IMG/VR virus record: IMGVR_UViG_3300032038_000058
Strand: one strand, 5' to 3'
DNA: 64,000 nt
Source: an uncultured virus (IMG/VR IMGVR_UViG_3300032038_000058)
Taxonomy: Duplodnaviria > Heunggongvirae > Uroviricota > Caudoviricetes
Of this stretch, positions 25,157 to 54,543 are shown piece by piece; position 1 is the first letter of the stretch; every line of letters begins with the position of its first letter. The position numbers and the translations under genes are program-made. The notes beneath the pieces are model-generated. The model worked only from the letters and a program-made list of their open reading frames with translations. It searched no databases and was not told the DNA's origin.

Positions 25157-25567
25157 TTAATTTTCTTTCTTTACGTAGCTTGTCCATTTATTCAGGATTC
25201 CTTTATAGTTTTTATTATCGAATCTATTTATTGCTTGATCATAAAATAGACAGTAGAGTAGTAGTTCTTCGTCTTTGCTTTTCTCGTCTACTATCAGATC
25301 TATCTTAGTAAAGCCTTTATTTATAATATGAGCCTCTAGTATTGCAAATTTCTCTTCTTCGGTTTCCCCATATATAACTGAGGGGAGTTTTAATGTATTC
25401 CTAACTGCAGGGAAGAGATTAAGAAGCAATCCGGTATTAATTTTCTGTTTAAAGCATACGGGTTCTTCTATTAATTTTTGAACAAGTAAAATCCCTTCCT
25501 CCTCTAGATCTATACACACATCTATCTCATGCTTTCTAACGAATACCTCCAGGTGATCTTTTATCAT
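25157..25567 (-). CDS. Hypothetical protein
   Basis: ORF downstream of the MFS gene. Confidence 0.55.
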   Translation of the reverse strand: MIKDHLEVFVRKHEIDVCIDLEEEGILLVQKLIEEPVCFKQKINTGLLLNLFPAVRNTLKLPSVIYGETEEEKFAILEAHIINKGFTKIDLIVDEKSKDEELLLYCLFYDQAINRFDNKNYKGILNKWTSYVKKEN

Positions 25568-26738
25568 CTTTGAATAAACTTATTGCAATTCCCAGGGCTA
25601 CAATATAAATTACCCCTACTACTAAGAATAGTGTATCATATCCAAGTCCTCGATTATTTATAATAAAGGAGCTTAATTGATTTCCACTCAGTCCTGCCCA
25701 TGCCCAAGCACTTAAAGCAAATCCATGAATAGTAGATATATTATTCATGCCAAATTTTTCTTTTAGCAGTATAGGTAATGTACTAAATCCACCACCATAC
25801 CCAGCATTAATAATACATAGGGTTATTATCAGGAGTATTGGTGATAAAGACACTGATCCTAGACAGAATATTGTACTAGTAAAGAATATAATAAGATATA
25901 TTATAATTTTTTTACTAACTAGGTCTGAGCATGTACTATATCCAAATCTTCCTACTGTATTAAATAATGCTGTTGTAGCTGATAACAGGGCAATTCCGGA
26001 GATACCAACAGAGAGTGCTATAGATTTTTCAAAGGATATCAAAGCAAGGCCACATGTAATATTTAGGTAGAATAATAGCCAAATCCTAATATACCTAGAA
26101 TCTAGTATTACTTTAAATGCATCTTTAAACTTAAACTCATCTTTAGGTTCTGTCCATCCCTCTGGTTTTTTAATAAATAATGAAGCGAGAAGCATAGGTA
26201 AGAATGATATACCTGCCATTGCTGTTAGTACTTCACTTGCTAATAAGTTAATACTAAATAGGTATTCTATTATAGGGGAGAATAATACTTTACTTAATCC
26301 AAATCCACTTATAGCAATACCTGTTGCTAGTCCGGGGTGTTTACTGAACCAGAGCATTAATGTTTTTACTGGACTTAAATATCCTATACCTAATCCAATT
26401 CCCATTAAGGCTCCATAGGATAAGAATAACCCTAGAATAGAACCTCCTTTAATTGCGAGGGCGGATAGTAACAGACCTGAGATAAAACAGATCATAGAGA
26501 GTACACTTGCATTTTTCACATTTTTCTCAACAAATCTACCACCAAATGCAGCAGACATACCTAGTGAAAAGATAGCAAGCGAAAAAGCAAATTCAATCGG
26601 GGATGTAGAAACTAATCCCATCTCTTGAGCAATATCGCCTTTTAATAGCGACCAACAATATACACTTCCAATGCATGAGTGTATCAATAGTGCAGGTAAA
26701 GCCCCACACAACCATTTATTTTCTTTTATCTTTATCAT
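25536..26738 (-). CDS. MFS transporter, OFA (oxalate:formate antiporter-like) family
   Basis: About 12 TM segments; GSVYCWS, GIGLGIGYLSP, WFSKHPGLATGIAISGFG, YGGGFS. Start placed at ATG 26738 after the promoter motif. Confidence 0.85.
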   Translation of the reverse strand: MIKIKENKWLCGALPALLIHSCIGSVYCWSLLKGDIAQEMGLVSTSPIEFAFSLAIFSLGMSAAFGGRFVEKNVKNASVLSMICFISGLLLSALAIKGGSILGLFLSYGALMGIGLGIGYLSPVKTLMLWFSKHPGLATGIAISGFGLSKVLFSPIIEYLFSINLLASEVLTAMAGISFLPMLLASLFIKKPEGWTEPKDEFKFKDAFKVILDSRYIRIWLLFYLNITCGLALISFEKSIALSVGISGIALLSATTALFNTVGRFGYSTCSDLVSKKIIIYLIIFFTSTIFCLGSVSLSPILLIITLCIINAGYGGGFSTLPILLKEKFGMNNISTIHGFALSAWAWAGLSGNQLSSFIINNRGLGYDTLFLVVGVIYIVALGIAISLFKDDKRSPGGIR

Positions 26739-26789
26739 AACACATATAAGGCAGTGATTGTTTTCTATAGGCAAAACCTTATATTTGAT

Positions 26790-27403: not shown

Positions 27404-30061
27404 TTAACCCAGTACTTCTACCTTAGGATTATTGTTTTCGTCAAGGCTAACATTAAATTTCGAGGCTTTTACATCTTGCAACATCATATTACTTACAGGT
27501 ATTATTACAGATGATTCAATACCTCTTGACAAATCTCTAGCTCCGTATATAGGATTACATTTACTAATGATATAATCCCTCAACTCGTTAGAGACTTTAA
27601 TGCTAACTTTATTTTTATTTAACTGTGTCCGAATCTTTAACAGTTCTTTATTAAAAATTTTGACTAATTCATCTTTTCCTAGGTTATTGAATACTATGAT
27701 TTTATCTAATCTGTTAATGAATTCTGGGCGAAAGTGTTTTTCTACACTCTTCATTACAATATTCTTATTTCTTCTTGCAATGTCCCCCGGATCCTTTATT
27801 CCAAATCCAATATTTTTATCTTCCTTTAATTCCCGGGTACCAATATTTCCCGTAAAGATTATTACACAGTTAGAGAAATCTACCTCAGTTCCATTGGCTA
27901 ATTTACACTTTGATGTTTCCAATACAGATAGCCAGATGTCATATAAGGCGGGATGCATTTTATCTATTTCATCAAGAAGTACTAAAGATCTTTTATGTCT
28001 TCTTACTTTCTCTAGGATACAATCTCCGTTCTCATATCCTACATATCCGGCGGGTGCACCAATTAGTTTAGACAATGAGTGTTCTTCCTTAAGTTCACCA
28101 CCATCAATTTTAATCAATGCATCTTCTGACCCAAAGAATATTCTAGCAAACTCTTGAGCAATAAGTGTTTTACCTACTCCACTAGGCCCTACTGCTAAAA
28201 GACTACATAGAGGTTTCTTTTGGTTATGCAATCCCAGAGAGTTCAATTGAAGCGACTGAACTAATGTATCAATAGCCTCTTGCTGACCAATTACTTTACT
28301 TTCAAGTTCTTTTTTCATCAAGGCTATTTTATCTCGATCTGATTGAATAATATTCTCAGCCGGAATCCCTGTCATTTTACTTACGGCATCTGATACAGCA
28401 TCTAGTGTAATAACTGGCCAGGTTTTTCTGTTCCTAGCATCTTTTTCAGTAGCTTTGATTTCAGCATCTATAAGTTTTTGAATAGCTTTCTCTTCTTTTC
28501 TCAACTCTTCTCCTCGCTCAAAATCCATATCTACCTGAACAGCTTTTATCTTCTCTTCAATTATATTTTTCAATTTATCTTCCAGGTCAGTAGTTTTTGG
28601 AGATTCAACAATTCTCTTTAAACTTACAATTGAAGAGCTTAGGTCTAGAACATCTATTGCTTTATCGGGGAAATTCTTATCGGTTATATATCTATCTGCC
28701 CATTCTACACAATGTTCAATAGTGTCTTTGTCTAATCGAACTCTATGATATTTTTCGTATGCTCCCGAAAGACCTTTAAGTATTTTAATAGTTTCTCCCT
28801 TACTAGGTTCTTTAACTTCTACTTGAGTAAATCTTCGGTTCAATGCAGCATCTTTTTCTATATACTTTCTATACTCGTCATTTGTTGTTGCACCAATACA
28901 CTGGAACTCACCACGAGCTAGATAGGGTTTCAAGATATTAGCACCGTCTCCACCACCAGTTCCTCCATTTCCAACAAGGGCATGAAGTTCATCGATATAT
29001 ACAATAATATCTTTTGAAGAACATACCTCCTTTATTATCTTCTGTAATCGTTCTTCATATTCTCCTCTATATTTTGTTCCCGCCACTAAGTCATTCAAGT
29101 TCAGCGCCCGAATTTCTTTATTCTTTAGTGCAGCAGGAACCTTGTTGTTTACTATTCTTTGTGCTAATAGTTCAACTACGCTACTTTTGCCAACACCTGC
29201 TTCTCCTACCAAGGCGACATTAGCTTTTTTTCTTTTACATAGAATTTCAATAATAGAGTCTACTAAAGCATCCCTTCCTATTACGGGATCATATTTTCCA
29301 TCTTTAGCATAATTATTCATATTGATCGAAAATTGATCTAAGTAGGGAGTATCGCTGTTGGGATCTAATTCCTGTCCAGATAGAGGGCTAGTATCTCCAT
29401 ATTTCTCAAACTCCTTTTCATCGTCTTCATTATTTGCCATAGAATTATTATCATTATTGGTTGATTCTTTATCTTTAGCCATTGATTTTGCTATTTCCAT
29501 AAGGGCTGACATTATATCTTTACCACCTTTAATTTTCTTCTCTCCCTCATATAGTTTACTTATACTATCAGATGTAATTCCCATGTCAATCAAGATATCA
29601 ATGACACTAGAATCATAATGCTCTATTAGTTTTTCTAATATCACGTCAGTATCTAAAATATCTTCTCTCTCTGGATATACATATTTAGTATGTTCAATCG
29701 AGCAGTTAATTACATACTCAAGCTCCGGATCAATACCTAGGTCAACTGTAAAGTATCTATCATCCTTGTCAACATGTAAAGAAGATGCATTCTCTTCTAA
29801 CCAACATATTATATCGGCATTCTCATCCTCGGCCGTTTCTATAATAAAGTCTCTATCTTCTTCCTCGATAGTAGACAATAGATAATTAGATAATGGCAGA
29901 TTACTTGGAGAAGAATTCCTCTTGTTTAAGTAATAATCTAAGAAAGTAAGTGAAAATATCTCAATTGGTATTACATTCATCTTTCTTTCTTTTGAGAACT
30001 TGTACGAAATCTTAAAAATCTCCTGTAAGTCTCTTGATAGTTTTAACTTATTATTTTTCAT
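27404..30061 (-). CDS. clpC: ClpC/ClpA-type AAA+ ATPase
   Basis: Two NBDs (GEAGVGKS / YIDELH and GPSGVGKT / LLDEIDK), GTKYRGEYEER pore loop, NIGFG ClpP-docking loop, FRPEFINRLD, YGAR. Confidence 0.88.
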   Translation of the reverse strand: MKNNKLKLSRDLQEIFKISYKFSKERKMNVIPIEIFSLTFLDYYLNKRNSSPSNLPLSNYLLSTIEEEDRDFIIETAEDENADIICWLEENASSLHVDKDDRYFTVDLGIDPELEYVINCSIEHTKYVYPEREDILDTDVILEKLIEHYDSSVIDILIDMGITSDSISKLYEGEKKIKGGKDIMSALMEIAKSMAKDKESTNNDNNSMANNEDDEKEFEKYGDTSPLSGQELDPNSDTPYLDQFSINMNNYAKDGKYDPVIGRDALVDSIIEILCKRKKANVALVGEAGVGKSSVVELLAQRIVNNKVPAALKNKEIRALNLNDLVAGTKYRGEYEERLQKIIKEVCSSKDIIVYIDELHALVGNGGTGGGDGANILKPYLARGEFQCIGATTNDEYRKYIEKDAALNRRFTQVEVKEPSKGETIKILKGLSGAYEKYHRVRLDKDTIEHCVEWADRYITDKNFPDKAIDVLDLSSSIVSLKRIVESPKTTDLEDKLKNIIEEKIKAVQVDMDFERGEELRKEEKAIQKLIDAEIKATEKDARNRKTWPVITLDAVSDAVSKMTGIPAENIIQSDRDKIALMKKELESKVIGQQEAIDTLVQSLQLNSLGLHNQKKPLCSLLAVGPSGVGKTLIAQEFARIFFGSEDALIKIDGGELKEEHSLSKLIGAPAGYVGYENGDCILEKVRRHKRSLVLLDEIDKMHPALYDIWLSVLETSKCKLANGTEVDFSNCVIIFTGNIGTRELKEDKNIGFGIKDPGDIARRNKNIVMKSVEKHFRPEFINRLDKIIVFNNLGKDELVKIFNKELLKIRTQLNKNKVSIKVSNELRDYIISKCNPIYGARDLSRGIESSVIIPVSNMMLQDVKASKFNVSLDENNNPKVEVLG

Positions 30062-31951: not shown

Positions 31952-32465
31952 CTCTTTTTAAAATTTGCCTAAGAATGAAAGATGTCTCAGAGAGTTCAAT
32001 ACTATCAATCAATAATTTTAGAGACTCTTTTTCTTCATCCTCTCTTACTTTAGTAAAATCTATATTTTTTAACTCCTCTAGTATTATTTTATCCTTCTCT
32101 TGGATTCTTATACTTTCTAGTGAAATTATTATATTATGTATATTATTTTTAATAACTAATTCATGCTGTGTATATAGATAACGTGAACATAATATACACA
32201 AGATGATTATATTTAATATAATACTAATAGTTACTGATAAAGTTGTAACAGGATTATTCATTAGGTAAATAGTATTACCTACCAAACAACATATAAAAAT
32301 AAGAGAATAGGTAAATAGTAAGATTGACAAAATTCTCTTTGCCTTCTTATTAAGTATAGTTGCTTCTGCTCTAAGTAATGTTAATATATTGTTCATAGTA
32401 AAATATAAAAAGGAACCCTGAGTTGTTTCCTCAAGATTCCCAGTTTCACTCTTAATTAAGATCAA
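31908..32465 (-). CDS. Hypothetical membrane protein
   Basis: Two TM segments. Confidence 0.55.
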   Translation of the reverse strand: MILIKSETGNLEETTQGSFLYFTMNNILTLLRAEATILNKKAKRILSILLFTYSLIFICCLVGNTIYLMNNPVTTLSVTISIILNIIILCILCSRYLYTQHELVIKNNIHNIIISLESIRIQEKDKIILEELKNIDFTKVREDEEKESLKLLIDSIELSETSFILRQILKRGGYSSYLFNEKKYE

Positions 32466-33144
32466 ATGACTTCCATTCAGCTGCTTTAATTGCTCTATTC
32501 AACTCTGATACTCGTACTTTACCTTCAAACTTTCCTTTTGGGTAATGTAGGGTATTAAGATCTACCTCGATAGGGTTTCTCATGTCTACATCCTCAGTCG
32601 AATAAACAGCTTCCGGTTTTAACCAGATTGCTTCTCCTTCTCCCTCTACTTTTGTTACTAAAAACTTATCCAAAGAAATCAGTATGTCTATATAACTTCC
32701 AGGAGTAAATTTATAATTTCTCCATCTAAGCATATCTCTCAGGTCTACAATTAGGGTTCTTGTAGCCAAAGCAGAGTTGTCTAGTTCAATGAGAGGAAAA
32801 TCATTGTTATTCTCATAAACATTGATACCACTTAGTTTCTTTTCGAAAAAAGTACCTTCTTTTTTTGATAGTAGTTTTTCAATAAAATTTACAGAATTTG
32901 TCTTGATATCTTTCTTACTTTTTAACAATGTAGAAATTATATCAGCATGATTCCAAGATTTTATACTAGCTGAATAGTGATATTTTCCAGTCTTCTCACT
33001 TACTTTTTTCAGCGTGAATAGTGGTGTATGATCTGCTAGCATACTAGGAGAAACTATTTGATAATGATAGTAGGAATCACCCAGACAACTATTATCTAGG
33101 TAGAATGGAAATTGATTTCCAATTAATGTCTTCTGCTTCTTCAT
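32452..33144 (-). CDS. Hypothetical protein
   Basis: Coupled ORF. Confidence 0.6.
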
Positions 33145-33419
33145 TTCTTTCTTTTTTGATTATTATTTTTATTTGCAACATACGCTTCTTGTTGGGGTGT
33201 CTTCAGTCTAGTGGAAATTCTACCTTTTGTTAAATCATAAGGACTCATTTCTACTTTTACTCTATCACCTGCCAGTATTCTTATATAATTTTTTCGAATT
33301 TTTCCTGAAATAGTGCATAATATCTCAGGCTCACCTTCAATTTCAAGTGCTACTTTAAACATCGAATTTCCGAGCTCTTGAAGTACCGTTCCTTCATAAC
33401 ATAAACTCTCTTGTTTCAT
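33141..33419 (-). CDS. infA: Translation initiation factor IF-1
   Basis: [15 protein letters not shown] ... [32 protein letters not shown]. Confidence 0.93.
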
Positions 33420-34927
33420 TTTATCTCCAAGTCTTTATCAAATTTAATATCTAAGATTTGAAATTTATTTTTCATTATCTCAGTTTTAAGGTTTTTGGTA
33501 AGATCTTGGCGGAATTTTATCAAATCAGAAAGTGTTATTGTTACAGACATTATATTATTTTCGAGTATTTCACACTTAGTTATGTCCAAGTAATTACCCG
33601 AAACTACCGAACTTAATAACTCTTTTACTGAAGTTAATAGTTCACCTTCGCCTAGTACCTCCTCAAGTGTAACATTCTTCTTTTTAAAGGCTTTATCTTT
33701 AAGTTGAATAGATGTCTTTCGAGGAACGCCTATTTCATGGTATTTGAAATAATCTTCCGCAAAAGCAATATAATTATCAAAGTCACCGAATACTACCTGA
33801 TTCATATTAAATCTATATAGAATTTCTTCACAGATACTTTGTAAGTCTATTCCCAGATCTTTAAATTGTTCTGGATAGTAGAGACTTTGTATTATATTAT
33901 CCCTATCTATGTCATCTAAGAATATTCTCTGTAATGCTTGAACGTTTTCCTCAACGCTTTTCTTATTAGATAAAGTTTTTTCTTTAGGGAAGTAGAATTC
34001 AATGTTGTAAAACTTTACTAAAATATTAGTAAGTTTAGTTTTTATAAATTGAATTAAGATATCCCTGGAAGCATCACTTATTGTTTCCGCCGCTTTATTA
34101 GACCTATAACAATATACATTTAAAGCTTCTTTTAGGGGAACTTTTCCTTTATTGTTATCATTGTTTAGTCTCTGAATCATTTTATCCCTAAAGTCTTCAA
34201 AATGCTCGTCTAGGATTTCTATTTTCTCCCCAGAATCTACCATCAGTGGAAGTTTGTAGAGGACTTGAATATTATTACCCTCATCACTGACAATTTTACT
34301 ATCTAGTGCGTCAATATTAGTTTTAATACCCTTCGCTGATCTTAAGACTAGATAGTTCTCAACCATCTCTTTTTCTTTTAGGTAGTCTGAACTATACTTA
34401 TCTTCTTTATGTGAAAAAACTTTTCCTAGATAAATATAGGTTTCTTTTTCAGAGTCATATCTATGTCCAGGTATCCACTTTCTTGTTTTCTTTAGCATAG
34501 AACAGTTTACTCGGCGAATCATTTCATCAAAACACTCGTCATAAGAATCCATCCCTTCATTAGTGAATTTAACTTCTGTCGGGGAATCGTCAGAAAAGAT
34601 AGGTTCTACTTTCTCTGTAAAACTTCCAGCCGTACAATCTATCTGTGAAATTAAATCCCCAAGACCATTCTCACCAGAAAAATTCTTAACAACATACCAC
34701 ACATCATTTACTAAGATTGATAAAGTTAAGTCTTTCTCTACTCTAGCGTTAAATGAAATTTCATCATTTAGTTCTATTTCTTGATAAGGGCAGTTTTTTA
34801 GGTATTTTTTATAAACCTGTTCAAAATAATTCTTTCCTGCAGGTATTAGACATACTTTTTTTATACTATCTTCAGAAAAGATTATTAATTTTAAATCTGT
34901 TACTAATCTCCAGCTATTATTCATTTG
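33416..34927 (-). CDS. Hypothetical protein with KWIPGH motif (shared with 58729-60108)
   Basis: [12 protein letters not shown]...YIYLG. Start uncertain; ORF track gives 34936. Confidence 0.6.
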
Positions 34928-35360
34928 ATATTTCATATTTTACTTTGACTTTAACACTATTAAACTTTATTTTATTACCCCCTAGATAATTATAAGCAAC
35001 ATCTAATGCTTTTTTTAAATCTTCTGACGGGTTTTCTATATCTTCTGGGCGTGCGATTGTAATGACTGCTTGTTTAAACTTTTTCTTTGCCTCATCTGGA
35101 CCTATTAAGCTACAACTAAATAGTCTTCCATCTAATAGTTCACAAGCTTCATTGAGTTCTGGAATCTCCCAACATTCTCGATTAAATCTTGCTTCAATGA
35201 AATCTTCTAGTGTATCTACCATATTAATACCAGAAGTAGGTGTTCTTCTGCAATCAACCCAACCGCCTTTCTTATACCAAATCAAGCTTTTGTTCACTTT
35301 TGTTATAAGATTTTTTAAATTCTTCTCCATTGATTTTAAATATAAGTTTGTAAAATTCAT
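34917..35360 (-). CDS. Hypothetical protein
   Basis: ORF; start uncertain. Confidence 0.5.
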   Translation of the reverse strand: MNFTNLYLKSMEKNLKNLITKVNKSLIWYKKGGWVDCRRTPTSGINMVDTLEDFIEARFNRECWEIPELNEACELLDGRLFSCSLIGPDEAKKKFKQAVITIARPEDIENPSEDLKKALDVAYNYLGGNKIKFNSVKVKVKYEISNE

Positions 35361-35871
35361 CCATCCTTTTTTCTTCTATAGATGAAGGTGGATAGTTTAA
35401 TTTCTCTTCATAACATATATAACTTGAAACATAGGAGTAATATCCTCCTTCGGTTTTTACAAGGACACTAACTTTATATTTTTCGCCGGAGATGGTATCT
35501 ATAATTTCGTATTCACCTTCTTCATAATACCAATCCTCGAATTCTGCTAAACCACTAGTCCTTGTATATTCATTTCTAATATAAGGAACCTGGTCGTTTA
35601 TTTTTGCAATTTTCCAATTTTGAAGAGTAAATATCCCCTCAGAAATTATAAAACTGTCAAGTTCCTCTGGAAAAGATTCAGGTATTAATATCAAATTATA
35701 ATCTTTTATCCAAACGAAAGGGTAATTATCAATCATAAAATACCTTTGATATCGGAAATTCGGATCTTCAATAAAATTTTCCTGACATGGTATTTTTCGG
35801 AATTTCTTATCCTCTATTGGGACGATTGAATAAAATTTTTCTTTAGTTATTAGCCTTATCCTCGTATCCAT
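35272..35871 (-). CDS. Hypothetical protein
   Basis: ORF downstream of the radical SAM gene. Confidence 0.55.
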   Translation of the reverse strand: MDTRIRLITKEKFYSIVPIEDKKFRKIPCQENFIEDPNFRYQRYFMIDNYPFVWIKDYNLILIPESFPEELDSFIISEGIFTLQNWKIAKINDQVPYIRNEYTRTSGLAEFEDWYYEEGEYEIIDTISGEKYKVSVLVKTEGGYYSYVSSYICYEEKLNYPPSSIEEKRMDEFYKLIFKINGEEFKKSYNKSEQKLDLV

Positions 35872-36886
35872 TCCTGTATTTATTAAAATAGTCTATTATA
35901 TTCATTTTACTCCAAGAAACCCGATTAAGATCCCTGGAAGTAGGTGCATACTTTTCTTCTACTGCATCAATGTACATAGAAGAACTAAATTCATCACCAA
36001 AATATAACTTATCCCACTCATCTTTTGTTAAACAATCTCGTATCCCTAATTGATCTATTGCAAGATTATCAAATCCTACTATCTTTTTAAATTTTCCATC
36101 AAAAAGATACCTAGATCTATATAAATACTGTTTTAAGTAACTTGACCATTCTTCTAAAGACTTTTCAGGCAAGTTCATAGTTCTAGCTCGACCGAACTGT
36201 TTGAATCCCAATATTAGAATTTTATCATAATATTTACTTTTTAATAATTTTTTCAAGTCTTCTAGTGGGAATAGACCAGCTATTATATGATACACGTACT
36301 TACTTTGATTTCTTCTTCGTAAGTAATACATTGAATCGTTTCCTAGAAATTCTGTAATTGGATCTTCTATGTAATTATCTAGGCTAACTCCTATATTGTG
36401 CGAAATATCTAATAATTTCTTAATTCTATCAGATTTGTATTTTACTTGACCGTGATATGGTGAATCTTCGTTCTCAGGTAAGATTTCTACTTGAGATTGA
36501 ATATCAGAGTATCTAACTGTCACTCGTGGTTGAAAGTTTCTACTCTCACACCATTCTATTAGTTTTATAGTATCTTCGGGAATTTCAAAAATATTTCCAC
36601 CCCCAATAGCAATCTCAATACCAACGTGAGGTAATTGATCTAGAATGGCTACGGTTCTGTTAAAATCAAAACTCTTTCCACTAGGATTACTAGATTCATG
36701 ACAAAAAGGACAGTTATTTAAACATTTATTCGTTATCTTTAAGTCAATTGAATCTGGGAATTTAGGACTTAACTCTTCACCTGCCCTTAATGCCCTTTTT
36801 ACTTTAGTTCCAGTATAATCAAGGTTTACAAAATAATTACCATTTATATAATTACTACTTAGATTATTTGGTCTTTTCTCGTTCAT
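35843..36886 (-). CDS. Radical SAM protein (TNSSS-associated, copy 1)
   Basis: DLKITNKCLNNCPFCH (CxxxCxxC) and EIAIGGGN. Confidence 0.88.
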   Translation of the reverse strand: MNEKRPNNLSSNYINGNYFVNLDYTGTKVKRALRAGEELSPKFPDSIDLKITNKCLNNCPFCHESSNPSGKSFDFNRTVAILDQLPHVGIEIAIGGGNIFEIPEDTIKLIEWCESRNFQPRVTVRYSDIQSQVEILPENEDSPYHGQVKYKSDRIKKLLDISHNIGVSLDNYIEDPITEFLGNDSMYYLRRRNQSKYVYHIIAGLFPLEDLKKLLKSKYYDKILILGFKQFGRARTMNLPEKSLEEWSSYLKQYLYRSRYLFDGKFKKIVGFDNLAIDQLGIRDCLTKDEWDKLYFGDEFSSSMYIDAVEEKYAPTSRDLNRVSWSKMNIIDYFNKYRNGYEDKANN

Positions 36887-37962
36887 ATTTCTCCAAATTC
36901 TTCTGATATAATTGAATAATTAACAAATACTACCTCTTGTTGATGATCATTAATAATCTTGCGGAAGGTTTCCTCTAAGTTCTTGATATACTCTATATCA
37001 ATATCAGATTTATTACCTCCTCTCGATAACTTTAATGACTTTGAAAATGAATTAAGATAATTTTTTGTTAGATTTCCATTTTCAGTTTCCCACAGACTTC
37101 TAACATTATCACTAATCCATAATAACTTACGAGATGTTTCTGGAATGCTGGGATAGTTGGACTCTATTGAGAAAAATGAAAAATTCTTTTTAGGAAAATA
37201 GTATAATATTTTTGAGTTACCGATATCGCTATTTTGTGTCATACTTGTGAATTTTCCATCTTTATAGATAATACACTCAAGTAGTTTTATTTCTGTACCT
37301 ATCACATCTTCATCTGATTCTGGGAATTCTTGAATAGGTATGTCAACTTTTCCTATGTCTCCACCGAACTCTATTGAAATATTTCCACCAACTAGGGGAT
37401 AATTGGGATTAATTAATTCTTTTTGCATTTTAAGATATAAACTTCCCCCATCATCTCCTAAGTATAGCCAAGAATTAGAGTTAAATATAAAATTTTTAAG
37501 AACTTCTTTATTTTCCCAAACATCATATCCTAGGTCGAGACTTTGGTGATCTACTTCAGGCCAATATTCATAAATGTCAAAATCAAATTCGTTTAATCTC
37601 TCTATACTGGTTTCTTGAAGCTCCTTATAATATGCTCCTAACCAATCGAACTTTACACCCTTACAGCCAGTAAACTCTACTAAAATTTCTTGTAAGAGAG
37701 ATAATTTTTCATAATCTTCTCCCCTTATTAAACCACATGCGTACTGAATTTTTTTCAACACACTATTAAATTTCTCATACTCTCTCCCGAAAGAACAGTC
37801 AGAAGAGATATGAATGATGCCTTCTTCGTCCATTTCTAAATCCCATAGTAAACTATCTGGGGTTATGTTATTAACCTCTCTTGTGTTAATTACAATAGAA
37901 TGAGACGAACTACTATTTGTTTCTGGCAAATCTTTTCTAATTACTATTTTTAAATCTTTCAT
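36883..37962 (-). CDS. TNSSS-motif protein, long form
   Basis: N-terminus VIRKDLPETNSSSSHSIVI; stop overlaps the radical SAM start. Confidence 0.7.
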   Translation of the reverse strand: MKDLKIVIRKDLPETNSSSSHSIVINTREVNNITPDSLLWDLEMDEEGIIHISSDCSFGREYEKFNSVLKKIQYACGLIRGEDYEKLSLLQEILVEFTGCKGVKFDWLGAYYKELQETSIERLNEFDFDIYEYWPEVDHQSLDLGYDVWENKEVLKNFIFNSNSWLYLGDDGGSLYLKMQKELINPNYPLVGGNISIEFGGDIGKVDIPIQEFPESDEDVIGTEIKLLECIIYKDGKFTSMTQNSDIGNSKILYYFPKKNFSFFSIESNYPSIPETSRKLLWISDNVRSLWETENGNLTKNYLNSFSKSLKLSRGGNKSDIDIEYIKNLEETFRKIINDHQQEVVFVNYSIISEEFGEI

Positions 37963-38002
37963 ACACTAGTAAGGAATTTAAATGAAAAATAAAGAGGGAA
38001 AA

Positions 38003-38536
38003 TTAAATCCCTCTCTTCTTTTTAGTTTCTTTATCTAATATTTTCAGTAATGTAGGCAATCTGTAGTTACCATCCATTGAGCGTATTAGATCAGCTGCTA
38101 ATTGGTCTGAAATACCTTCTCCTTGAACAAATAAAGGATTAACTACTTCTTTATTTCGGTACACTTTTATACTAATATCATCACACTTACAATAAAGACT
38201 TTTCGCAACTCCTATTAATTTTATATGAGAGATGTTAAGTTTCTTTCTTAAGTGTAAGCCAAGACCATCATGAATACTTCCATCAGCATCTTTCAATCTC
38301 AAGAAACCATCTAAGATTATAAAGTCTATCTTACTTAAGTCTACCTTTTTTAATAAATCTAAGATACATGGAAGTTCTCGTTTGTAGAATTGTCCTGGTA
38401 TATATGGTCCGAAATTATTCTCAGAGATAACTGAAATTATACTACTGGGAACTTTATCTTGCCACGAATTGAATAGTACTCCGACCGTAAAAGCTTTCGT
38501 ATCTGATTCATAAAAAGTATCTATAGCAATAATCAC
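38003..38536 (-). CDS. Endonuclease V-like protein
   Basis: IAIDT, PYIPGQFYKRELP, IILDG, IGVAKS, YRLPTLLKILD. Confidence 0.8.
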   Translation of the reverse strand: MIIAIDTFYESDTKAFTVGVLFNSWQDKVPSSIISVISENNFGPYIPGQFYKRELPCILDLLKKVDLSKIDFIILDGFLRLKDADGSIHDGLGLHLRKKLNISHIKLIGVAKSLYCKCDDISIKVYRNKEVVNPLFVQGEGISDQLAADLIRSMDGNYRLPTLLKILDKETKKKRGI

Positions 38537-44749: not shown

Positions 44750-45466
44750 ATGAGTAAGAAATTTAAATTTAGTGATTTCAGAAATTACTTTAAAGCAAGA
44801 AAACCATTTATGATGACGGCATTTGATGATATAGTAAAGCATCAGCCAAAAGGTATCATCACACCCTATATTACAAGGGAAAGCCAAGATAGAATGATTC
44901 AAGTAGATGTATTTTCTGAATTAATGGCAAACAGAATTATATTTTTCGGCGATGAAGTCAACTCTACTACAAGTGCTGTGGCCGTTGCTCAATTACTTTA
45001 TATGAGAAGTGTTGATAAGACTGCACCAGTATCTGTATTCATTGAAAGTCCGGGGGGATCTGTTTATGATGGTCTCGCTGTATATGACACAATGACGATG
45101 ATGAAGAAAGATTGTGAGATTACTACTGTGGCGTTAGGATTAGCTGCTAGTATGGGTAGTATTCTTTTACAAGGAGGTACTAGGGGAAAGAGATCAGCCT
45201 TACCACATACAAGAGTTCTTATACATCAACCCCTCAGTGGAACAGGAGCAGGATCACACCAAGCAACAGATATTGAAATTCTTAGTAAAGAGACAAATAT
45301 ATTAAAAAAAGAATTAATTGGAATTTTAGCTAGTGCATCTGGTAAGCCATTTGATGAAGTGTACGCTGATTGTGAAAGAGATCATTGGTTGAAAGCAGAA
45401 GAATGTTTGCCAGGTAAATATGGAGAGTTTGGCTTGATAGATACTATTGCAGATACACTATTCTAA
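44750..45466 (+). CDS. clpP: ClpP protease subunit
   Basis: DVFSELMANRIIF, IESPGGSVYDGLAVYDTM, GLAASMGS, LIHQP, ERDHW. Confidence 0.92.
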   Translation: MSKKFKFSDFRNYFKARKPFMMTAFDDIVKHQPKGIITPYITRESQDRMIQVDVFSELMANRIIFFGDEVNSTTSAVAVAQLLYMRSVDKTAPVSVFIESPGGSVYDGLAVYDTMTMMKKDCEITTVALGLAASMGSILLQGGTRGKRSALPHTRVLIHQPLSGTGAGSHQATDIEILSKETNILKKELIGILASASGKPFDEVYADCERDHWLKAEECLPGKYGEFGLIDTIADTLF

Positions 45467-46407: not shown

Positions 46408-47070
46408 TTATAAACCAAATTGATCTAATACAGGAAGGATAACTTGTTTTATTGCTTCTCCATCCTCTTTCCACTTTCCGTTGACTTCTAACTCTAATGT
46501 TTGTCTGGCATCTAACTGAGAACTATACTTTGTTAAGGCAGAACATTCCCAATCTATTATAAGATCTATTGCATTTAACTTATCCCAACCTTTCTTTTTT
46601 CCATACTCGAGATGGTGACTATTATGCTCACGGTGCCATTTTTGAACTTTCTTGTAGTCTTTCCTATACCACAGCTTTAGCCAAGGTTTTTCAATATCAT
46701 GTAGAAGATGTCTCGGTTTCCACACTCCTAGGTTTAAAGCTAGCATTTGAAAAGCACACCAATGGGCAAACCAGTATTTGAATGAACTTCTTTGGTCTTT
46801 CCGGAATAAATGAACCTCTTTCATATATCCCCTCAGAGATATTAGATCATTAAACGCATATAATTTTTCTCCGGCAAAACATATCACATATGAATTAAAT
46901 CCAATAGCTATATCGCCGGTCTTATCATCTACTATATTTCCGTAATGATCTTTCTTAACCCCTACTAGATTAAATCTCTGTTTAATATATTCATAGTTAG
47001 TGCCATCATATTTGACTGGCTCATGAAACTCTAACTCTTCTTTTGTCTTTCTAAATCTAAACTTTTTCAT
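46408..47070 (-). CDS. HD-like domain protein
   Basis: HW ... LLHDIEK ... HREHNSHH ... IDWEC. Likely start at MKKFRF; the 47166 start overlaps the RlmN-like gene. Confidence 0.55.
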   Translation of the reverse strand: MKKFRFRKTKEELEFHEPVKYDGTNYEYIKQRFNLVGVKKDHYGNIVDDKTGDIAIGFNSYVICFAGEKLYAFNDLISLRGYMKEVHLFRKDQRSSFKYWFAHWCAFQMLALNLGVWKPRHLLHDIEKPWLKLWYRKDYKKVQKWHREHNSHHLEYGKKKGWDKLNAIDLIIDWECSALTKYSSQLDARQTLELEVNGKWKEDGEAIKQVILPVLDQFGL

Positions 47071-47965
47071 TTTTCTGTAACCATTCTTGAAAATACCATA
47101 ATTGTCCACATCCTCCACCAATGTCATCTTGTCCTGCAGGATTAAACACGCGGAGGGATGCACCACCTTCTAGCATATATTTCTGAAATTCATTAATAAT
47201 ATCTAATTGTCTATCAATAGATGACTTAACACTTTCATCTTTTTCACAAATTACACTAAGAGTACATTCCCACACTCTCGGATCAAATATTTCTAATAAT
47301 CTTTTGGCATCCTCTTTCGTATTATTCCCCTCATGTACACAATAATTATAGAAAGGCTTACGATTAGTAAATGCAGCCCAAGTATTACCAAGAGTTGAAA
47401 TTTGTCTTAATGTACAAGTTTTAGTTGGTATCAATTTTGCTCTATTCTCATCTAAAGATTCATGAACAGAGAACTGTAAGCCAACCTTATCTATTAGCTG
47501 AGACAACGCAATAAATCTAGAAAACACTTTTTCAATTCCTTGTGGTGCTGAAGTACTTACGAGAAGCTGAGCATTTGAATACTTTACATTAAGAACTTTA
47601 ATAGCCTCTTCTAGGTTATCATAGTTCTGCATCGGTTCGCCCATACTCATAAACATTATTTGAAACTTCTCTATATCATCTGTTTTCGTATCCCCTAGTA
47701 CACTGTCTCTTATAACAGTATCCACTTGGTCAATAATCTCACGGGCAGATAAATTTCTAATAAAGAATCTTCCAGTCCAGCAAAAAGTACACCCAACTGG
47801 ACAACCGCTCATAACTGAACAACAAATAACTGTCCTTTTCTGATAAGATCCATACCGATATAGTACAGCCTCGGCAATAGCTTCTTTAATATCTTTCGTT
47901 TTCTCCCATTCAAAAACGAATTTTTTTACATTAGTGTCGCTTGAATTAAATACTTTATATGTCAT
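47057..47965 (-). CDS. RlmN/Cfr-family radical SAM RNA methyltransferase
   Basis: SVMSGCPVGCTFCWTG, RNLSAREI, MSMGEP, SVH, DIGGGCGQL. Confidence 0.85.
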   Translation of the reverse strand: MTYKVFNSSDTNVKKFVFEWEKTKDIKEAIAEAVLYRYGSYQKRTVICCSVMSGCPVGCTFCWTGRFFIRNLSAREIIDQVDTVIRDSVLGDTKTDDIEKFQIMFMSMGEPMQNYDNLEEAIKVLNVKYSNAQLLVSTSAPQGIEKVFSRFIALSQLIDKVGLQFSVHESLDENRAKLIPTKTCTLRQISTLGNTWAAFTNRKPFYNYCVHEGNNTKEDAKRLLEIFDPRVWECTLSVICEKDESVKSSIDRQLDIINEFQKYMLEGGASLRVFNPAGQDDIGGGCGQLWYFQEWLQKNEKV

Positions 47966-47980
47966 TTTATTTTATAAAAT

Positions 47981-49870
47981 TTATAATAACCAATCATTAA
48001 CTACTGCATCACTAGGCATTCTCCAGTCACCCCTAGGACTAAGACTAACTGATCCAATCTTAGGTCCATCAGGAACACAGGATCTTTTAAATTGTTGTGA
48101 GAAAAACCTCTTGATAAATTTACTATACCAATCCTTAATTACTTCTTTTCCGTAGTATTTTTCAAACTTAGCATTTTCCGCCAAGAATAAAATCTTATCG
48201 CTTGAAAAATTATGTCGTACTAGGTTATATAAGAAGAAGTCGTGAAGTTCATACGGTCCAATCTTATCTTCGGTCACCTGTGCATTTTCTCCTTCTGCAC
48301 CCGAACCTGTTAATTCTGGGGAAACAGGAGTTGAAAGTATGTCATGTAATACCTTACCTATCTCTTGCGTCTCAGTGCAATACTGAATATAATAACCGAT
48401 TAATCTTTTTATTAATGTCTTAGGAACGGAACAATTTACGTTATACATAGACATATGATCGGCATTATATGTACACCAACCTAATGCCGCTTCACTTAGA
48501 TCACCGGTTCCAATTACTAAGGCGCCCTCTTGATTACTTAGGTTCATCAAGATCTGTGTCCTACTTCTTGCCTGAACATTCTCATAGGTTATATCCTGAG
48601 TCTCTAGATCATGCCCTAAGGATTTTAATTCAGCCTCACACATTGCTTTAATATCAATTTCCCTAGAATCAATTCCGAATAACTCCATTAAACGAAGAGA
48701 ATTACCCTTTGTTCTCTGACTTGTAGCAAATCCAGGCATAGTTACCCCAATTATATCGGTCATTGGTCTTCCTAATTTTTTCATTGCCTCAATCGTAACC
48801 AATAATGCCCAAGTAGAATCAGAACCTCCACTGATTCCTAATATGGCCTTCATTCCAGTATGTTCTAATCTTTTTGCTAAGGCTAAACTCTGCATGGATA
48901 GTATTGATTCATATACACCCTTTTCATTCTTCTTAGGTATAAAAGGAGTACCATCATACTCTCTTACTGTATATGATAGGTGACTATTAAACTCTGCGAG
49001 AATTGGTAAATCTACATTAATAACATCAACTTTTTCTGCACAACCAGACTCTAAGAAATTCCTAAAAGTATTATTAACTCTTCTATCATTTCTAATACTT
49101 TCAACGTCAATATCGCTAAAAGCCAATTGTTCTTTAATATCAAAGAATGTCCTTTCTAGGAGTTTACCGTTTTCAAAGATAAATCCCTTTCCAGAATAAA
49201 CTAAATCTTGAGTACTTTCGCCATATCCCGCACTGCTGTAGACATACCCACAAATAAACCTAGCACTTTGTTGCCGAAGAAGCGCTGACAAGTATTGATC
49301 TTTTCCTATCAAATCATTGGATGCTGATAGATTAAAGATAATATCCGCACCTGATTGTACTAAGTAAGATGACGGTGGAATAGGGGCCCAGACATCTTCA
49401 CAAATTTCTATACCGAAATTAAAATCTTCAGACTTAAATACCACTAAGTTAGAAACTGATCTCGAAAACCACCTAGGCTCATAGAATTCTTTATACCCAG
49501 GGAGATTTCTTTTTCCAACAATTCCTAGTAACTTTCCATACTGTATCACATAAGCAGCATTAATTAGTCTACCATTTTCCTCTGAAGTAGCCCCTATGAT
49601 AAATACTGAACTTCCAAGATCCGATGAGTAATCTATAAGCTCATTTATACCTGCCTTCTCTGCGCTCAATAATGAATCTTGATGGAATAAGTCTCCACAA
49701 GTATATCCCGTTACACAGAGTTCAGGAAATACAGTAATGTTAACTCCTTCCTGATATGATTCTTTCATTAATTTTTTAATTTGAGTAACGTTATATTTAA
49801 CATCCGCAACCTTAACTTTAGGTTTTGCAGTTCCTACTCTAATTAATCTAAAATTTTTTCTTTCATTCAT
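47981..49870 (-). CDS. nadE: Glutamine-dependent NAD+ synthetase
   Basis: Nitrilase domain FPEL, K, EICED; synthetase GISGGSDS, YENVQARSR, GTGDLSE, FKRSCVPDGPK. Confidence 0.93.
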   Translation of the reverse strand: MNERKNFRLIRVGTAKPKVKVADVKYNVTQIKKLMKESYQEGVNITVFPELCVTGYTCGDLFHQDSLLSAEKAGINELIDYSSDLGSSVFIIGATSEENGRLINAAYVIQYGKLLGIVGKRNLPGYKEFYEPRWFSRSVSNLVVFKSEDFNFGIEICEDVWAPIPPSSYLVQSGADIIFNLSASNDLIGKDQYLSALLRQQSARFICGYVYSSAGYGESTQDLVYSGKGFIFENGKLLERTFFDIKEQLAFSDIDVESIRNDRRVNNTFRNFLESGCAEKVDVINVDLPILAEFNSHLSYTVREYDGTPFIPKKNEKGVYESILSMQSLALAKRLEHTGMKAILGISGGSDSTWALLVTIEAMKKLGRPMTDIIGVTMPGFATSQRTKGNSLRLMELFGIDSREIDIKAMCEAELKSLGHDLETQDITYENVQARSRTQILMNLSNQEGALVIGTGDLSEAALGWCTYNADHMSMYNVNCSVPKTLIKRLIGYYIQYCTETQEIGKVLHDILSTPVSPELTGSGAEGENAQVTEDKIGPYELHDFFLYNLVRHNFSSDKILFLAENAKFEKYYGKEVIKDWYSKFIKRFFSQQFKRSCVPDGPKIGSVSLSPRGDWRMPSDAVVNDWLL

Positions 49871-50179: not shown

Positions 50180-50225
50180 AGCTAACAACAGCCCTACTTT
50201 TCTTTTCAAAACCTTAACTGTGTAT

Positions 50226-51077: not shown

Positions 51078-51517
51078 TGATTGAAGAATTAGAACGAAGA
51101 AAACTATATTCTTATTCTAGAGAATACCCTGATTCCTTTCGGGGATATAAAATATATTATTTAAGTCCTTATGGAGATATAGTCCGCCAATGCAAGAACG
51201 GATTAAATGACTATGGAACTTTTAATATACAAAAGAATAATATAATATTAATTAACATATGTAGACTTAAAACGTATCTTCCTGAACTTTTTAATTTTAA
51301 AATACCCGCCGATCCATTACAATCTCAGCCACTTCTTGTACTAACTTTAACTCCAGCATATGTCCTACTTAGATTTGGACCAATATCAAAAAGTCTTACA
51401 GTCAGTGTGTATCCAGAAAACAATCACTATGGAATCGAATATGAAGGGTTACGTTTTCCGGGGTATCAAAAAATAGAAGATATAGTAAATTTTGTAAAAG
51501 AAAATAATATAGAGTAG
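51056..51517 (+). CDS. Hypothetical protein
   Basis: ORF; start uncertain. Confidence 0.5.
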   Translation: MFYKKKMMIEELERRKLYSYSREYPDSFRGYKIYYLSPYGDIVRQCKNGLNDYGTFNIQKNNIILINICRLKTYLPELFNFKIPADPLQSQPLLVLTLTPAYVLLRFGPISKSLTVSVYPENNHYGIEYEGLRFPGYQKIEDIVNFVKENNIE

Positions 51518-52730: not shown

Positions 52731-52885
52731 GTTGAAAATATTAACCACGTATCATCCTCTCCTTTTAAGAACTTCCAGTAATATTCAAACTCTAAGTCTG
52801 TCATACCAAGTTCTTTCTGTAACTTCTCTTTCTTAGTAGGCGCTCGACAAGAACTATAAAAGCTTAAAGTTACTTCACAATTCAT
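52727..52885 (-). CDS. 52-aa ORF missing from the ORF track
   Basis: MNCEVTLSFYSSCRAPTKKEKLQKELGMTDLEFEYYWKFLKGEDDTWLIFST; ATGA overlaps at both ends. Confidence 0.6.
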   Translation of the reverse strand: MNCEVTLSFYSSCRAPTKKEKLQKELGMTDLEFEYYWKFLKGEDDTWLIFST

Positions 52886-53493
52886 ACCTCAACTATCTTA
52901 CAAGGTTCTAGGTTATATGAACTAGGAGTAATAACTATCTTCTCGTCCTTTATCAAAATATTCTTGCTATAAGTTTCTTGAGGATATTCATACACCTTAA
53001 TTAAATCTGGATGTGCTTGTAATTCCCCTATGAAATTAGCACCAAAAGCAAGATTAGTTATGTTGTTTTTATTAATCTCCTCAGCCATATACTCAAATAC
53101 CCCAGGCTCTAATCCTTTCTTTGACCTTCCATGTTTCATAAGGGGTAATAGGACATGATAATGCAAATCCTTTCCGTATTCTTTCGCTACTTGAATAAAC
53201 TCATCTACACTTGGCTTATCAGAAATTAAATGATGAATCATGACTTTACAATTTCCATACAACATGAGATTCTTAACTGCCATTTCTGCTTCTTTTCTCA
53301 CGGACCTATTTCCATAAGATACAGCTACACCACCGCAAAATTGACTAGTGGCCTCTAGAAGTTTCTTACACTCTGAAGAATTATAATCAGATAATGTAAG
53401 ACCATTTGTTGTATAATTCGGAACAACCCTAGTATTATAAACCATTTCTAAGAACTCAACAAACTCTGGATGAATTGTCGGTTCCATAGTTGA
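52882..53493 (-). CDS. Radical SAM protein (TNSSS-associated, copy 2), exon 2
   Basis: STMEPTIHPEF, NYTTNG, VAVS; in frame with exon 1 after splicing. Confidence 0.85.
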   Translation of the reverse strand, partial: STMEPTIHPEFVEFLEMVYNTRVVPNYTTNGLTLSDYNSSECKKLLEATSQFCGGVAVSYGNRSVRKEAEMAVKNLMLYGNCKVMIHHLISDKPSVDEFIQVAKEYGKDLHYHVLLPLMKHGRSKKGLEPGVFEYMAEEINKNNITNLAFGANFIGELQAHPDLIKVYEYPQETYSKNILIKDEKIVITPSSYNLEPCKIVEV

Positions 53494-53782
53494 CACTATA
53501 CCATTATATTTCTATAATGAGTGGAGTACATTTTCATCTACCTCTCGTAGATGTCGCGCCCTTCGAAGTTTTATATTCTTTAATAATATTAAAGGTTCAT
53601 CCATACTCTCTACACTACTGTATCATATTACCTATACAGTTAGCACGGGATTACCATGATTAATTCCTAATTTTAGGCTTCCCCGTTAGCACTAATAGAA
53701 TTAGTACCCTCATTATTACTGAGTTGGCGCGATTCATTGATATTATCACTAACATCAAGGGCATTTTTGAAACTAATTAAAT
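53494..53782 (-). ncRNA. ORF-less group I intron (289 nt) in a radical SAM gene
   Basis: On the minus strand the exon ends GGU and P1 GGU|AUUU pairs with AAAUGCC (U-G wobble). P3 UCGCGCC/GGCGCGA; P4 CGGGG/UCCCG; P7 GAGAGUA/UACUCC; terminal G. Splicing gives QIAIG|STMEP. Confidence 0.85.
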
Positions 53783-54223
53783 ACCTATTGCTATTTGAAA
53801 TGGTTTCTCTGTATATACAATTGGCTTACCTGCAAGTTCCATCATTTTTGCGATAAGCTTGAGATTTATTACATCAGCACTATCATCTTTCTCCGGTATA
53901 CTCAATAGTTCTTTTACAGTTTCGTCATTAGTTGTCTTAGGATCCACTGCTATATCTTCTGGGAAAGAATCTAGCCACGATTTCCACGTCTTACTTACCT
54001 CTGGCCAAAATTCTCCACCCTTACCAGCAGAAACATAGCAAAACGGGCAAGACAGGTTACACTTCGTTCCTAGGCCGACGTCATAGAACTCACTTCTCTC
54101 TGGCTTAAGTTCCATTGTAGGTCCTAAGTCTAATCTAACAGTTTTAAGATTATGCCAAATGGAATAATAATTTAATCCTGGATTTCTTCTAATTCTTATT
54201 CCCCAATCTGTAAAATTCTTCAT
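53783..54223 (-). CDS. Radical SAM protein (TNSSS-associated, copy 2), exon 1
   Basis: DVGLGTKCNLSCPFCY (CxxxCxxC) ... FQIAIG. Confidence 0.85.
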
Positions 54224-54543
54224 TATATTTCTCTTGAATAATTAGTGAAATCAATTGAATAACCTTTGAATCTCTCATTTGATTCTAGGAGTGCTTTTAT
54301 TCCCTCACTGTAAAATTTCTTCACCTTTCTTTTCCAATGAGGATATTCTACTACTAGATGTGGCCGCCTGTTACATTCTCCCATATAAATAACTACGTCC
54401 AATTCTGATTCTTGACTATAACCAAAAACATCATCTAGTAAATCTTCTATCTCTTTTAAAATTTTCTTGTCTGGGTGATTTATATAACAAAACACCTCAG
54501 AACTACTGTTTGTAATTACATCTGTTACTGATTTAATTTTCAT
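54223..54543 (-). CDS. TNSSS-motif protein, short form
   Basis: MKIKSVTDVITNSSSEVF; TAATG overlap with the radical SAM start. Confidence 0.7.
   Translation of the reverse strand: MKIKSVTDVITNSSSEVFCYINHPDKKILKEIEDLLDDVFGYSQESELDVVIYMGECNRRPHLVVEYPHWKRKVKKFYSEGIKALLESNERFKGYSIDFTNYSREI

Follow-up and report, generated by a model that had tools for sequence, protein, structure and literature searches.

Why should two proteins that have almost nothing else in common carry the same five residues close to their N-termini, and why should each be encoded beside a gene for a radical S-adenosylmethionine (SAM) enzyme? The question is raised by a 64,000-nucleotide stretch of DNA from an uncultured virus of the Caudoviricetes (IMG/VR record IMGVR_UViG_3300032038_000058), referred to here in its full length as the window, which is AT-rich and phage-like in composition (32% GC) and has no match in named-phage DNA. 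Two such gene pairs lie on its minus strand, TNS1 with rSAM1 and TNS2 with rSAM2; the first gene of each encodes a protein with an N-terminal Thr-Asn-Ser-Ser-Ser (TNSSS) motif, and the second a radical SAM enzyme. Comparison across phages and bacterial contigs shows an invariant N-terminal head, carried by divergent proteins, that is coupled in a clade-specific manner to a dedicated single-cluster radical SAM enzyme. Both pairs in the window are best explained as instances of one widespread phage module, built from a phage-specific enzyme superfamily and a T-N-S-S-(S/T) loop. The features at issue, with positions numbered along the window, are these:

36883..37962, minus strand: TNS1, 359 amino acids (aa), with the N-terminal head R9..E14-T-N-S-S-S19..H21, reading ..PETNSSSSHS.., its Thr being residue 15
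37906..37920, minus strand: TNSSS codons of TNS1, residues 15-19
35843..36886, minus strand: rSAM1, 347 aa, a single-cluster radical SAM enzyme with the motif CLNNCPFC (C55/C59/C62)
54223..54543, minus strand: TNS2, 106 aa, with the head S5..D8-V-I-T-N-S-S-S-E16, reading ..DVITNSSSEVF.., its Thr being residue 11
54499..54513, minus strand: TNSSS codons of TNS2, residues 11-15

In the first pair the stop codon of TNS1 and the start of rSAM1, which lies downstream, overlap by 4 nt. In the second, the end of TNS2 overlaps by 1 nt the start of a 148-aa open reading frame (ORF; 53777-54223), with a 204-aa ORF (52882-53496) further downstream, and these two ORFs are the halves of a split rSAM2 gene, as discussed below. 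The ORFs and coordinates of both pairs are as an earlier, sequence-only reading of the window had given them. Across a six-frame translation of the 64 kb, TNSSS occurs exactly twice, both times in the heads of TNS1 and TNS2, where about 0.02 occurrences would be expected from the composition of long ORFs; looser patterns brought up no additional heads in the window.

Evidence that these are more than two chance neighbours comes from the consistency of the pairing. In a profile scan of IMG/VR loci, mostly on contigs of 100-450 kb, a relative of rSAM1 was present in 76 of 80 loci with a TNS1-type gene, and in all 74 scored pairs the enzyme lay on the same strand and downstream; when TNS1 proteins were clustered at 70% identity, 35 of 39 clusters had the enzyme. 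On the TNS2 side, an rSAM2-type gene followed immediately downstream in 77/79 viral loci (28 of 29 clusters), and both of the TNS2-type loci without an enzyme sit at contig ends. As a control for circularity, the search was also run from the enzyme side with motif-free patterns, and a headed ORF, that is, one carrying the motif, was sought within 5 kb: an N-terminally headed ORF was found in 76 of these 80 loci and in 27 of 28 enzyme clusters. The co-occurrence is therefore near-obligate in both directions. It extends to bacterial and archaeal genome contigs, where the enzyme accompanies the head domain in 30 of 36 loci; two cultured bacteria, Eubacterium plexicaudatum ASF492 and Lachnospiraceae MD308, are represented among the 36. 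Of the six loci without the enzyme, four fall at contig ends, and the remaining two (L169 and L174) have room for it yet lack it. Among named phages, the enzyme occurs in 24 records (nine from the Ma-LMM01 group of Microcystis phages, the other 15 from Lak megaphages), and each of these also encodes a head-domain protein of about 165 aa. The head and enzyme genes of Ma-LMM01 are separated by one ProQ-C-like gene, and in Lak-A2 the gene order is reversed. The Ma-LMM01 gene product gp130, a 165-aa TNSSS-headed protein, defines phrog_28997, a cluster whose function is not annotated.

The pairing is also specific to type. None of the 80 TNS1-type loci contains a match to the C-terminal part of the rSAM2 type, and in TNS2-type loci rSAM1 gives weak matches only, around the cysteine motif. 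There are two sister clades, each with its own head: R-x4-E-TNSSS-x-H goes with rSAM1 and S-x2-D-x2-TNSSS-E with rSAM2. These comparative data strongly support the proposal of the sequence-only reading that a TNSSS protein and a radical SAM enzyme together form one uncharacterised phage system.

If the module is a real one, what exactly is conserved in the partner protein? Of the 540 headed ORFs with TNSS[ST] in all loci examined, 520 carry it among their first 30 residues, and the 18 in which it lies at residues 31-70 are probably ORFs called from an upstream alternative start codon. Head frequencies were computed over 254 unique heads, in which the positions used for selecting or sorting stand at 100% by construction. 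Thirty-one TNS1 homologues were found in the protein collection. The conserved domain of TNS1 covers roughly residues 1-175, and its C-terminal half is variable; in 69 TNS1-type sequences only R9, E14, T15, N16, S17, S18, S19 and H21 are invariant, with D138 and F158 near-invariant, and in the long family of this type D138-H139 and the G-N-D of residues 169-171 are near-invariant in both the 31 and the 69 sequences. A word-free HMMER scan covering 1.84 billion proteins brought up 129 representative relatives of TNS2 at E <= 0.001; in 42 TNS2-type sequences the invariant residues are the T, N, S and S of the motif and P68, and near-invariant are S5, D8, I10, S15, E16, F18, C19, I21 and G81. When the two families were compared with hhalign, 15 columns aligned, comprising the motif and the strand after it, at a probability of 19%. 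It had been suggested that TNS1 and TNS2 resemble each other in the motif alone, and apart from that following strand this is what the alignment gives.

The partners as a whole range from 90 to 404 aa, some of the bodies behind the head amounting to only about 70-80 residues. Neither TNS1 nor TNS2 belongs to a family in Pfam, PHROGs, NCBIfam or PADLOC, a TNS1-family profile run against PDB sequences returned 0 matches at E <= 10, and in the ESM Atlas TNS1 meets viral clusters only (scores 0.83-0.84). A reading of the TNS1 motifs as SGNH-hydrolase-like or metallophosphatase-like was considered and dropped, as the order of the motifs is wrong and no fold matches.

A view of how head and body relate is offered by loci in which several headed genes precede a single enzyme. 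Such tandem arrays, of two to six genes, are found in many loci: there are six in L076 and L251, five in L197, four in L077, and three each in L070, L080, L165, L168, L170, L173, L231 and L266. Arrays of TNS2 type occur as well, with three headed genes in L087 and four in L093, the latter followed by a fifth ORF with a TNSST head. Among 70 paralogue pairs taken from 12 tandem loci, identity stands at 74.7% over the 20-residue head and drops to 27.1% over the rest, the bodies being 90-261 aa long. The idea that TNSSS behaves as a tag is strongly supported by these data, as the motif is strictly N-terminal, the head is kept on divergent bodies, and the pairing with the enzyme is clade-specific.

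A natural fusion ties the two halves of the module together. The 476-aa protein gp146c of Salmonella phage Arash, annotated as a 'methyltransferase', holds head domain and enzyme in one chain. It begins with ..FATNSSSSHS.., shares the motifs IDHES and GGNDN with the TNS1-type domain, and matches phrog_28997 at its N-terminus; its radical SAM part scores 51.4 bits in Pfam at 196-308, matches phrog_16999 at 188-457 (E 5e-29) and aligns by BLASTP with residues 44-317 of rSAM1 (E 3e-12). None of the 540 headed ORFs in the loci examined is fused to an enzyme. The Arash fusion supports direct cooperation of head domain and enzyme.

The enzymes themselves are recognisable as radical SAM proteins. rSAM1 has 382 homologues, so that the phage-specific clade counts hundreds of metagenomic members; it matches phrog_16999, 'Fe-S oxidoreductase' (E 4e-37), and its neighbours in the ESM Atlas are clusters dominated by viruses. 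Against the gathering threshold of 29.5 bits for the Pfam Radical_SAM family (PF04055), rSAM1 reaches 22.7 and exon 1 of rSAM2 15.2 bits, both below it, and three relatives pass: the Arash fusion with the score given above, L173 with 32.4 and L076 with 35.1 bits. A family profile compared with solved structures matched the generic core only, in viperin-like proteins and SkfB (best E 1.4e-4), and PADLOC likewise reported a weak similarity of the relatives to the viperin core. The three cysteines of CxxxCxxC (C55/C59/C62) are invariant in 26 rSAM1-type sequences and near-invariant in the rSAM2 type, and no conserved cysteine beyond the radical SAM motif was found in either clade; with only three conserved cysteines in both, there is no SPASM or twitch auxiliary cluster. 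An hhalign alignment of the two families spans 164 columns and takes in the segment ahead of the cluster motif (probability 97%, E 8e-11), which bears out the earlier impression that the two enzymes are related. One group of loci (L138, L140, L141, L143-L146 and L151-L158) is rSAM2-type by tblastn yet has no CxxxCxxC-containing ORF of at least 80 aa; the motif could vary there, the frame could be broken or a different genetic code could be in use.

The second enzyme of the window raises a question of its own, in that its gene is interrupted. The arrangement proposed for it is:

53783..54223, minus strand: rSAM2 exon 1, with the motif CNLSCPFC, ending ..FQIAIG
53494..53782, minus strand: intervening sequence of 289 nt, with U before it and G as its last base
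52882..53493, minus strand: rSAM2 exon 2, beginning STMEPTIHP

Uninterrupted homologues of rSAM2 (306-316 aa) read ..KPFQIAIGSTGEPTIHP.. across the junction. With 53494-53782 excised, the two ORFs join into one frame of 350 aa, which can be aligned over its whole length with four of the homologues that lack the interruption (47-52% identity). The earlier description of rSAM2 as occupying 52882-54223 after splicing is thus supported, in the sense that removing the 289 nt would restore the frame. The Rfam model for group I introns (Intron_gpI, RF00028) scores 16.4 bits on the insert (E 0.06-0.12, model positions 1-253), a match that covers the full model but does not reach the gathering threshold of 50; no Rfam family reached its threshold. 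Hallmarks of a group I intron are present: the 5′ exon ends in U, the intron ends in G, the frame is restored and the site is a conserved one. The same IAIG/STGEP site is interrupted in 8 of 77 related loci by inserts of 339-1995 nt, and the longer inserts of seven related loci gave nothing in Rfam. L082 (4652-6034) and L083 (4652-4956) are closely related gut-phage contigs whose rSAM2-type genes have their insert at the very codon junction that is split in the window; the insert of L082 contains two ORFs, including one that we take to be GIY-YIG-like, and that of L083 is short and has no ORF, which looks like presence/absence variation of a homing-endonuclease gene within the intron. Overall, the insert in rSAM2 is likely a mobile group I intron.

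How is the first pair delimited? Its flanks contain the following:

37991..38016, minus strand: terminator-like hairpin, 3′ of an Endonuclease V-like gene and directly upstream of TNS1
32452..35871, minus strand: five genes downstream of rSAM1, of 199, 147, 506, 92 and 230 aa

The hairpin is the boundary at which a new transcription unit starts with TNS1. A promoter motif had been seen upstream of both pairs, and here the sequence-only reading was not confirmed: the upstream word common to both, CCTTA(N)CTA, has 9 matches in the window for 7.3 expected, and before TNS1 there is no sigma-70-like site and the terminator-like hairpin stands there instead. The five genes after rSAM1, possible members of the module, keep the same order in related jumbo-phage loci. 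The 92-aa gene among them (33141-33419, minus strand) is 75% identical to a gene resembling translation initiation factor IF-1 that lies four genes past the enzyme in jumbo-phage relatives, and the 92-aa gene of L001 matches eIF-1a in Pfam (E 1e-21).

The company the module keeps was surveyed by scanning the flanking ORFs of 23 diverse loci against Pfam. Genes of the RNA-repair type flank 8 of the 23, a hint only and an uncontrolled one. They comprise Thg1 (L040, L059, L080), RlaP (L055, L075, L173), RtcB (L064), a CCA-adding enzyme (L173) and HAD_SAK_2 (L076). In L064, a module-bearing locus, a QueC-like gene with a LAGLIDADG intein (3-2297) lies near the RtcB ligase gene. Neighbours of a counter-defence type are PARG in L059 and an ADP-ribosylglycohydrolase in L093, and Arash gp143c (L278 6848-7300), annotated as an 'RNA ligase', matches Acb1, which acts against the cyclic oligonucleotide-based antiphage signalling system (anti-CBASS; PF23474, E 1.3e-15).

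The window has neighbours of both pairs that belong in the same picture. A Thg1-like tRNA-His guanylyltransferase gene (51521-52306, minus strand, 93.7 bits) is separated from rSAM2 by two small ORFs, lying downstream of it, and the Endonuclease V-like gene (38003-38536, minus strand, 36.6 bits) is directly upstream of TNS1. Two further radical SAM genes are present. The third gene of this kind in the window (47057-47965, minus strand, 302 aa) is RlmN/Cfr-like (phmmer to RlmN 6fz6, E 4.5e-16) and lies directly downstream of a gene for a glutamine-dependent synthase of nicotinamide adenine dinucleotide (NAD; 47981-49870). The fourth (50220-51077, plus strand, 285 aa), rich in cysteine at its C-terminus, is similar to the peptide epimerase YydG (E 3e-11); its end is overlapped by a 153-aa ORF of no known family (51056-51517, plus strand), and the two may be a further enzyme-partner pair. 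NAD salvage is represented by nicotinate phosphoribosyltransferase, isochorismatase-like and NAD synthase genes (11551-14659, plus strand; 47981-49870, minus strand), and in Arash a nicotinamide phosphoribosyltransferase gene lies near the fusion gene. Elsewhere in the window are a ClpB-like double AAA+ protein (27404-30061, minus strand), a ClpP protease (44750-45466, plus strand) and a transporter of the major facilitator superfamily (25536-26774, minus strand). A 261-aa ORF (2758-3543, plus strand) matches DNA polymerase family A at profile positions 216-336 of 381 only, and the polymerase gene of the window may be split.

Does the partner have a fold that would betray its function? A full-length model of TNS1 was poor, with a mean predicted local distance difference test score (pLDDT) of 66.3. 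An AlphaFold2 model of residues 1-180, built on the 69-sequence alignment, is better (pLDDT 83.8, predicted template-modelling score (pTM) 0.80), with residues 1-20 reaching only 56-63. The head is modelled with low confidence and yet is the most conserved part, a combination that would fit a segment ordering only on its partner. Foldseek found nothing at E <= 0.001 for the full-length model and no PDB match for the 1-180 model, and VIA-align over 48,161 chains gave a best Z of 2.8 for residues 1-180. In BFVD one uncharacterised Myoviridae protein matched (E 4e-6); a weak row there (E 1.2), a 461-aa 'Radical_SAM domain containing protein', may be a second fusion. A likeness to PP2C phosphatases, seen in a few weak Foldseek rows for full-length TNS1, was gone with the better 1-180 model. 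The absence of a structural match is not proof of a new fold.

What, then, might the enzyme do with such a partner? We infer from sequence comparison that the head is the interface of the partners with the enzyme. On the reading that we prefer, to which we would assign a probability of roughly 40%, the serine-rich loop loses a hydrogen to the enzyme, and each partner is modified in this way. The partner proteins would engage the enzyme through the head of about 20 residues; SAM would be reductively cleaved, and the enzyme would thereby abstract a hydrogen atom from a residue in the loop, leaving each partner modified, that is, matured or activated. The divergent bodies would then be the working parts, and the matured proteins might act in phage-host conflict, as the RNA-repair and counter-defence neighbours suggest. 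Several points weigh against this sequence of events. The contact of head and enzyme is deduced from genomics only, and since the motif was part of the patterns by which many loci were retrieved, its invariance in those sets is partly by construction. Known maturases that oxidise serine or crosslink peptides have auxiliary clusters, and the phage enzymes, with three invariant cysteines, have no cysteines for one. The residues that never vary in the head (R, E, T, N, S, S, S and H) are polar and would also suit the binding of phosphate, metal or nucleotide. Fusion is commoner for subunits than for an enzyme and its substrate, so the Arash protein leans somewhat towards a subunit relation. Taken together, the fusion and the polar head fit a role as adaptor or part of a composite active site equally well as they fit modification.

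The chief alternative to modification of the loop is that the headed proteins are swappable specificity subunits, in which the head docks on the enzyme and contributes to the binding of a substrate with a phosphate, for example a nucleotide of tRNA or another RNA, the body selects the target, and the chemistry falls on that target and not on the head. We hold this to be possible, if somewhat doubtful. Besides the fusion and the polar invariant residues, it would make sense of the several different bodies served by one enzyme, and of an RNA-related setting that includes the RNA-repair-type genes in the flanks of 8 of 23 loci, the Thg1-like gene beside the second pair and, in the same part of the window, a radical SAM gene of the RNA-methylating RlmN/Cfr kind. 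That setting is, however, an uncontrolled signal; none of the bodies showed a known domain for binding RNA or DNA, some bodies are only about 70-80 residues long, and 0 of 540 headed ORFs are joined to an enzyme in the loci examined.

Two other explanations fit the data less well than either of these. The TNSSS domain could itself be an enzyme, with catalytic E, H, D-H and G-N-D residues, that, in a two-step pathway, produces or uses up the small molecule or nucleotide on which the radical SAM enzyme acts. Translational coupling of the genes, a compact domain predicted with confidence and the further conserved polar residues D138-H139 and G-N-D 169-171 of the long family would all be expected of such a pathway, but the short bodies lack these extra motifs, as does the entire TNS2 family, so that the head alone is universal; tandem divergent bodies are ill-suited to a single step, and no enzyme fold was recognised, all of which makes this an improbable account. 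The head might otherwise be a sorting or processing signal unrelated to the enzyme, either for targeting to the capsid or as a propeptide cleaved by a protease and ending at the Glu before TNSSS, with adjacency reflecting inherited synteny. A strictly N-terminal signal on diverse tandem bodies is a pattern known for phage internal proteins, and the head has just this distribution. Synteny of this sort would, however, have to persist across very distant phages and prophage-like loci and in both gene orders, and it would leave the two co-varying types of head and enzyme and the fusion without an explanation; nor do capsid or protease genes recur beside the module. We consider this last account very improbable indeed.

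The pairing is that of a radical SAM enzyme with a dedicated protein partner, and it may be more than that. Perhaps it is a new machine for counter-defence or RNA handling, in which a radical SAM enzyme works with swappable headed proteins, either turning the loop of each into a new protein-derived reactive group or using the proteins as adaptors for altering host or phage RNA (e.g., tRNA) so that it escapes host nucleases. We regard this as speculative and, on balance, unlikely; if it were true, the arms race would be carried on by the tandem, fast-diverging bodies, and the fold of the domain would be new. Radical SAM enzymes that act on proteins are a rich source of new chemistry, and this enzyme clade has representatives in Lak megaphages and the cyanophage Ma-LMM01, in a Salmonella phage available in culture, and in prophage-like loci of gut Firmicutes that have been cultured. 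With motif and enzyme both defined, and joined naturally in one fusion protein, there is a handle on the role of the enzyme in large phages, and the gene neighbourhoods hint at RNA repair and counter-defence, both fields in search of new enzymology.

It remains to set the module beside what is known. No description of the TNSSS motif or of the pairing was found in the literature, of which the part on RNA repair was incompletely covered; in the passages of Iyer et al. 2021 (PMC7824862) that were examined, the term 'radical SAM' does not occur.

Among characterised systems, the sequence-only reading had drawn an analogy with anaerobic sulfatase-maturating enzymes (anSME), with the enzymes of ribosomally synthesised and post-translationally modified peptides (RiPPs) and with glycyl-radical activases; none of these fits in detail, there being no auxiliary-cluster cysteines and no Gly in the head. 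Like the phage enzymes as we read them, anSME is a radical SAM enzyme directed at a short Ser/Cys motif near the N-terminus of folded proteins, and a single anSME is able to act on several paralogous substrates. It differs in its SPASM domain with two auxiliary clusters, whereas the phage enzymes conserve three cysteines only, and the sulfatase fold and motif (C/S-x-P-x-R) are unrelated to the TNSSS partners, for which NCBIfam and Pfam give no match. Glycyl-radical activases of the pyruvate formate-lyase activating enzyme (PFL-AE) type come closer in build, being small, single-cluster radical SAM enzymes that act on a loop of a folded partner, often the product of the adjacent gene. The target of these activases is a Gly in the C-terminal finger loop of glycyl-radical enzymes, whereas the only universal segment of the TNSSS partners is N-terminal and without Gly, and sequence matches between the phage enzyme and these activases are confined to the generic radical SAM core.

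The logic of RiPP precursors and their maturases, as in PqqA-PqqD-PqqE, is similar in its tandem genes, its conserved N-terminal part with a variable remainder and its single radical SAM enzyme, and accessory-enzyme fusions of PqqD with PqqE are known. The TNSSS partners, unlike short precursor peptides, are 90-404 aa long with what is predicted to be a folded domain (pTM 0.80). Models of Pfam and NCBIfam detected neither a domain like PqqD or the RiPP recognition element (RRE) nor a SPASM domain, a divergent RRE being possible. NCBIfam maturase models score 10-20 bits on the enzymes, where their cut-offs are 170-650, and the best NCBIfam match, the His-Xaa-Ser system protein HxsC (TIGR03977), reaches 20.3 bits with a cut-off of 267.9. 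Close counterparts are also the database clusters phrog_16999 and phrog_28997, represented by gp128 and gp130 of Ma-LMM01. The annotation of the records examined mentions neither their link with each other nor the head motif. rSAM1 matches the former and the Arash fusion matches both.

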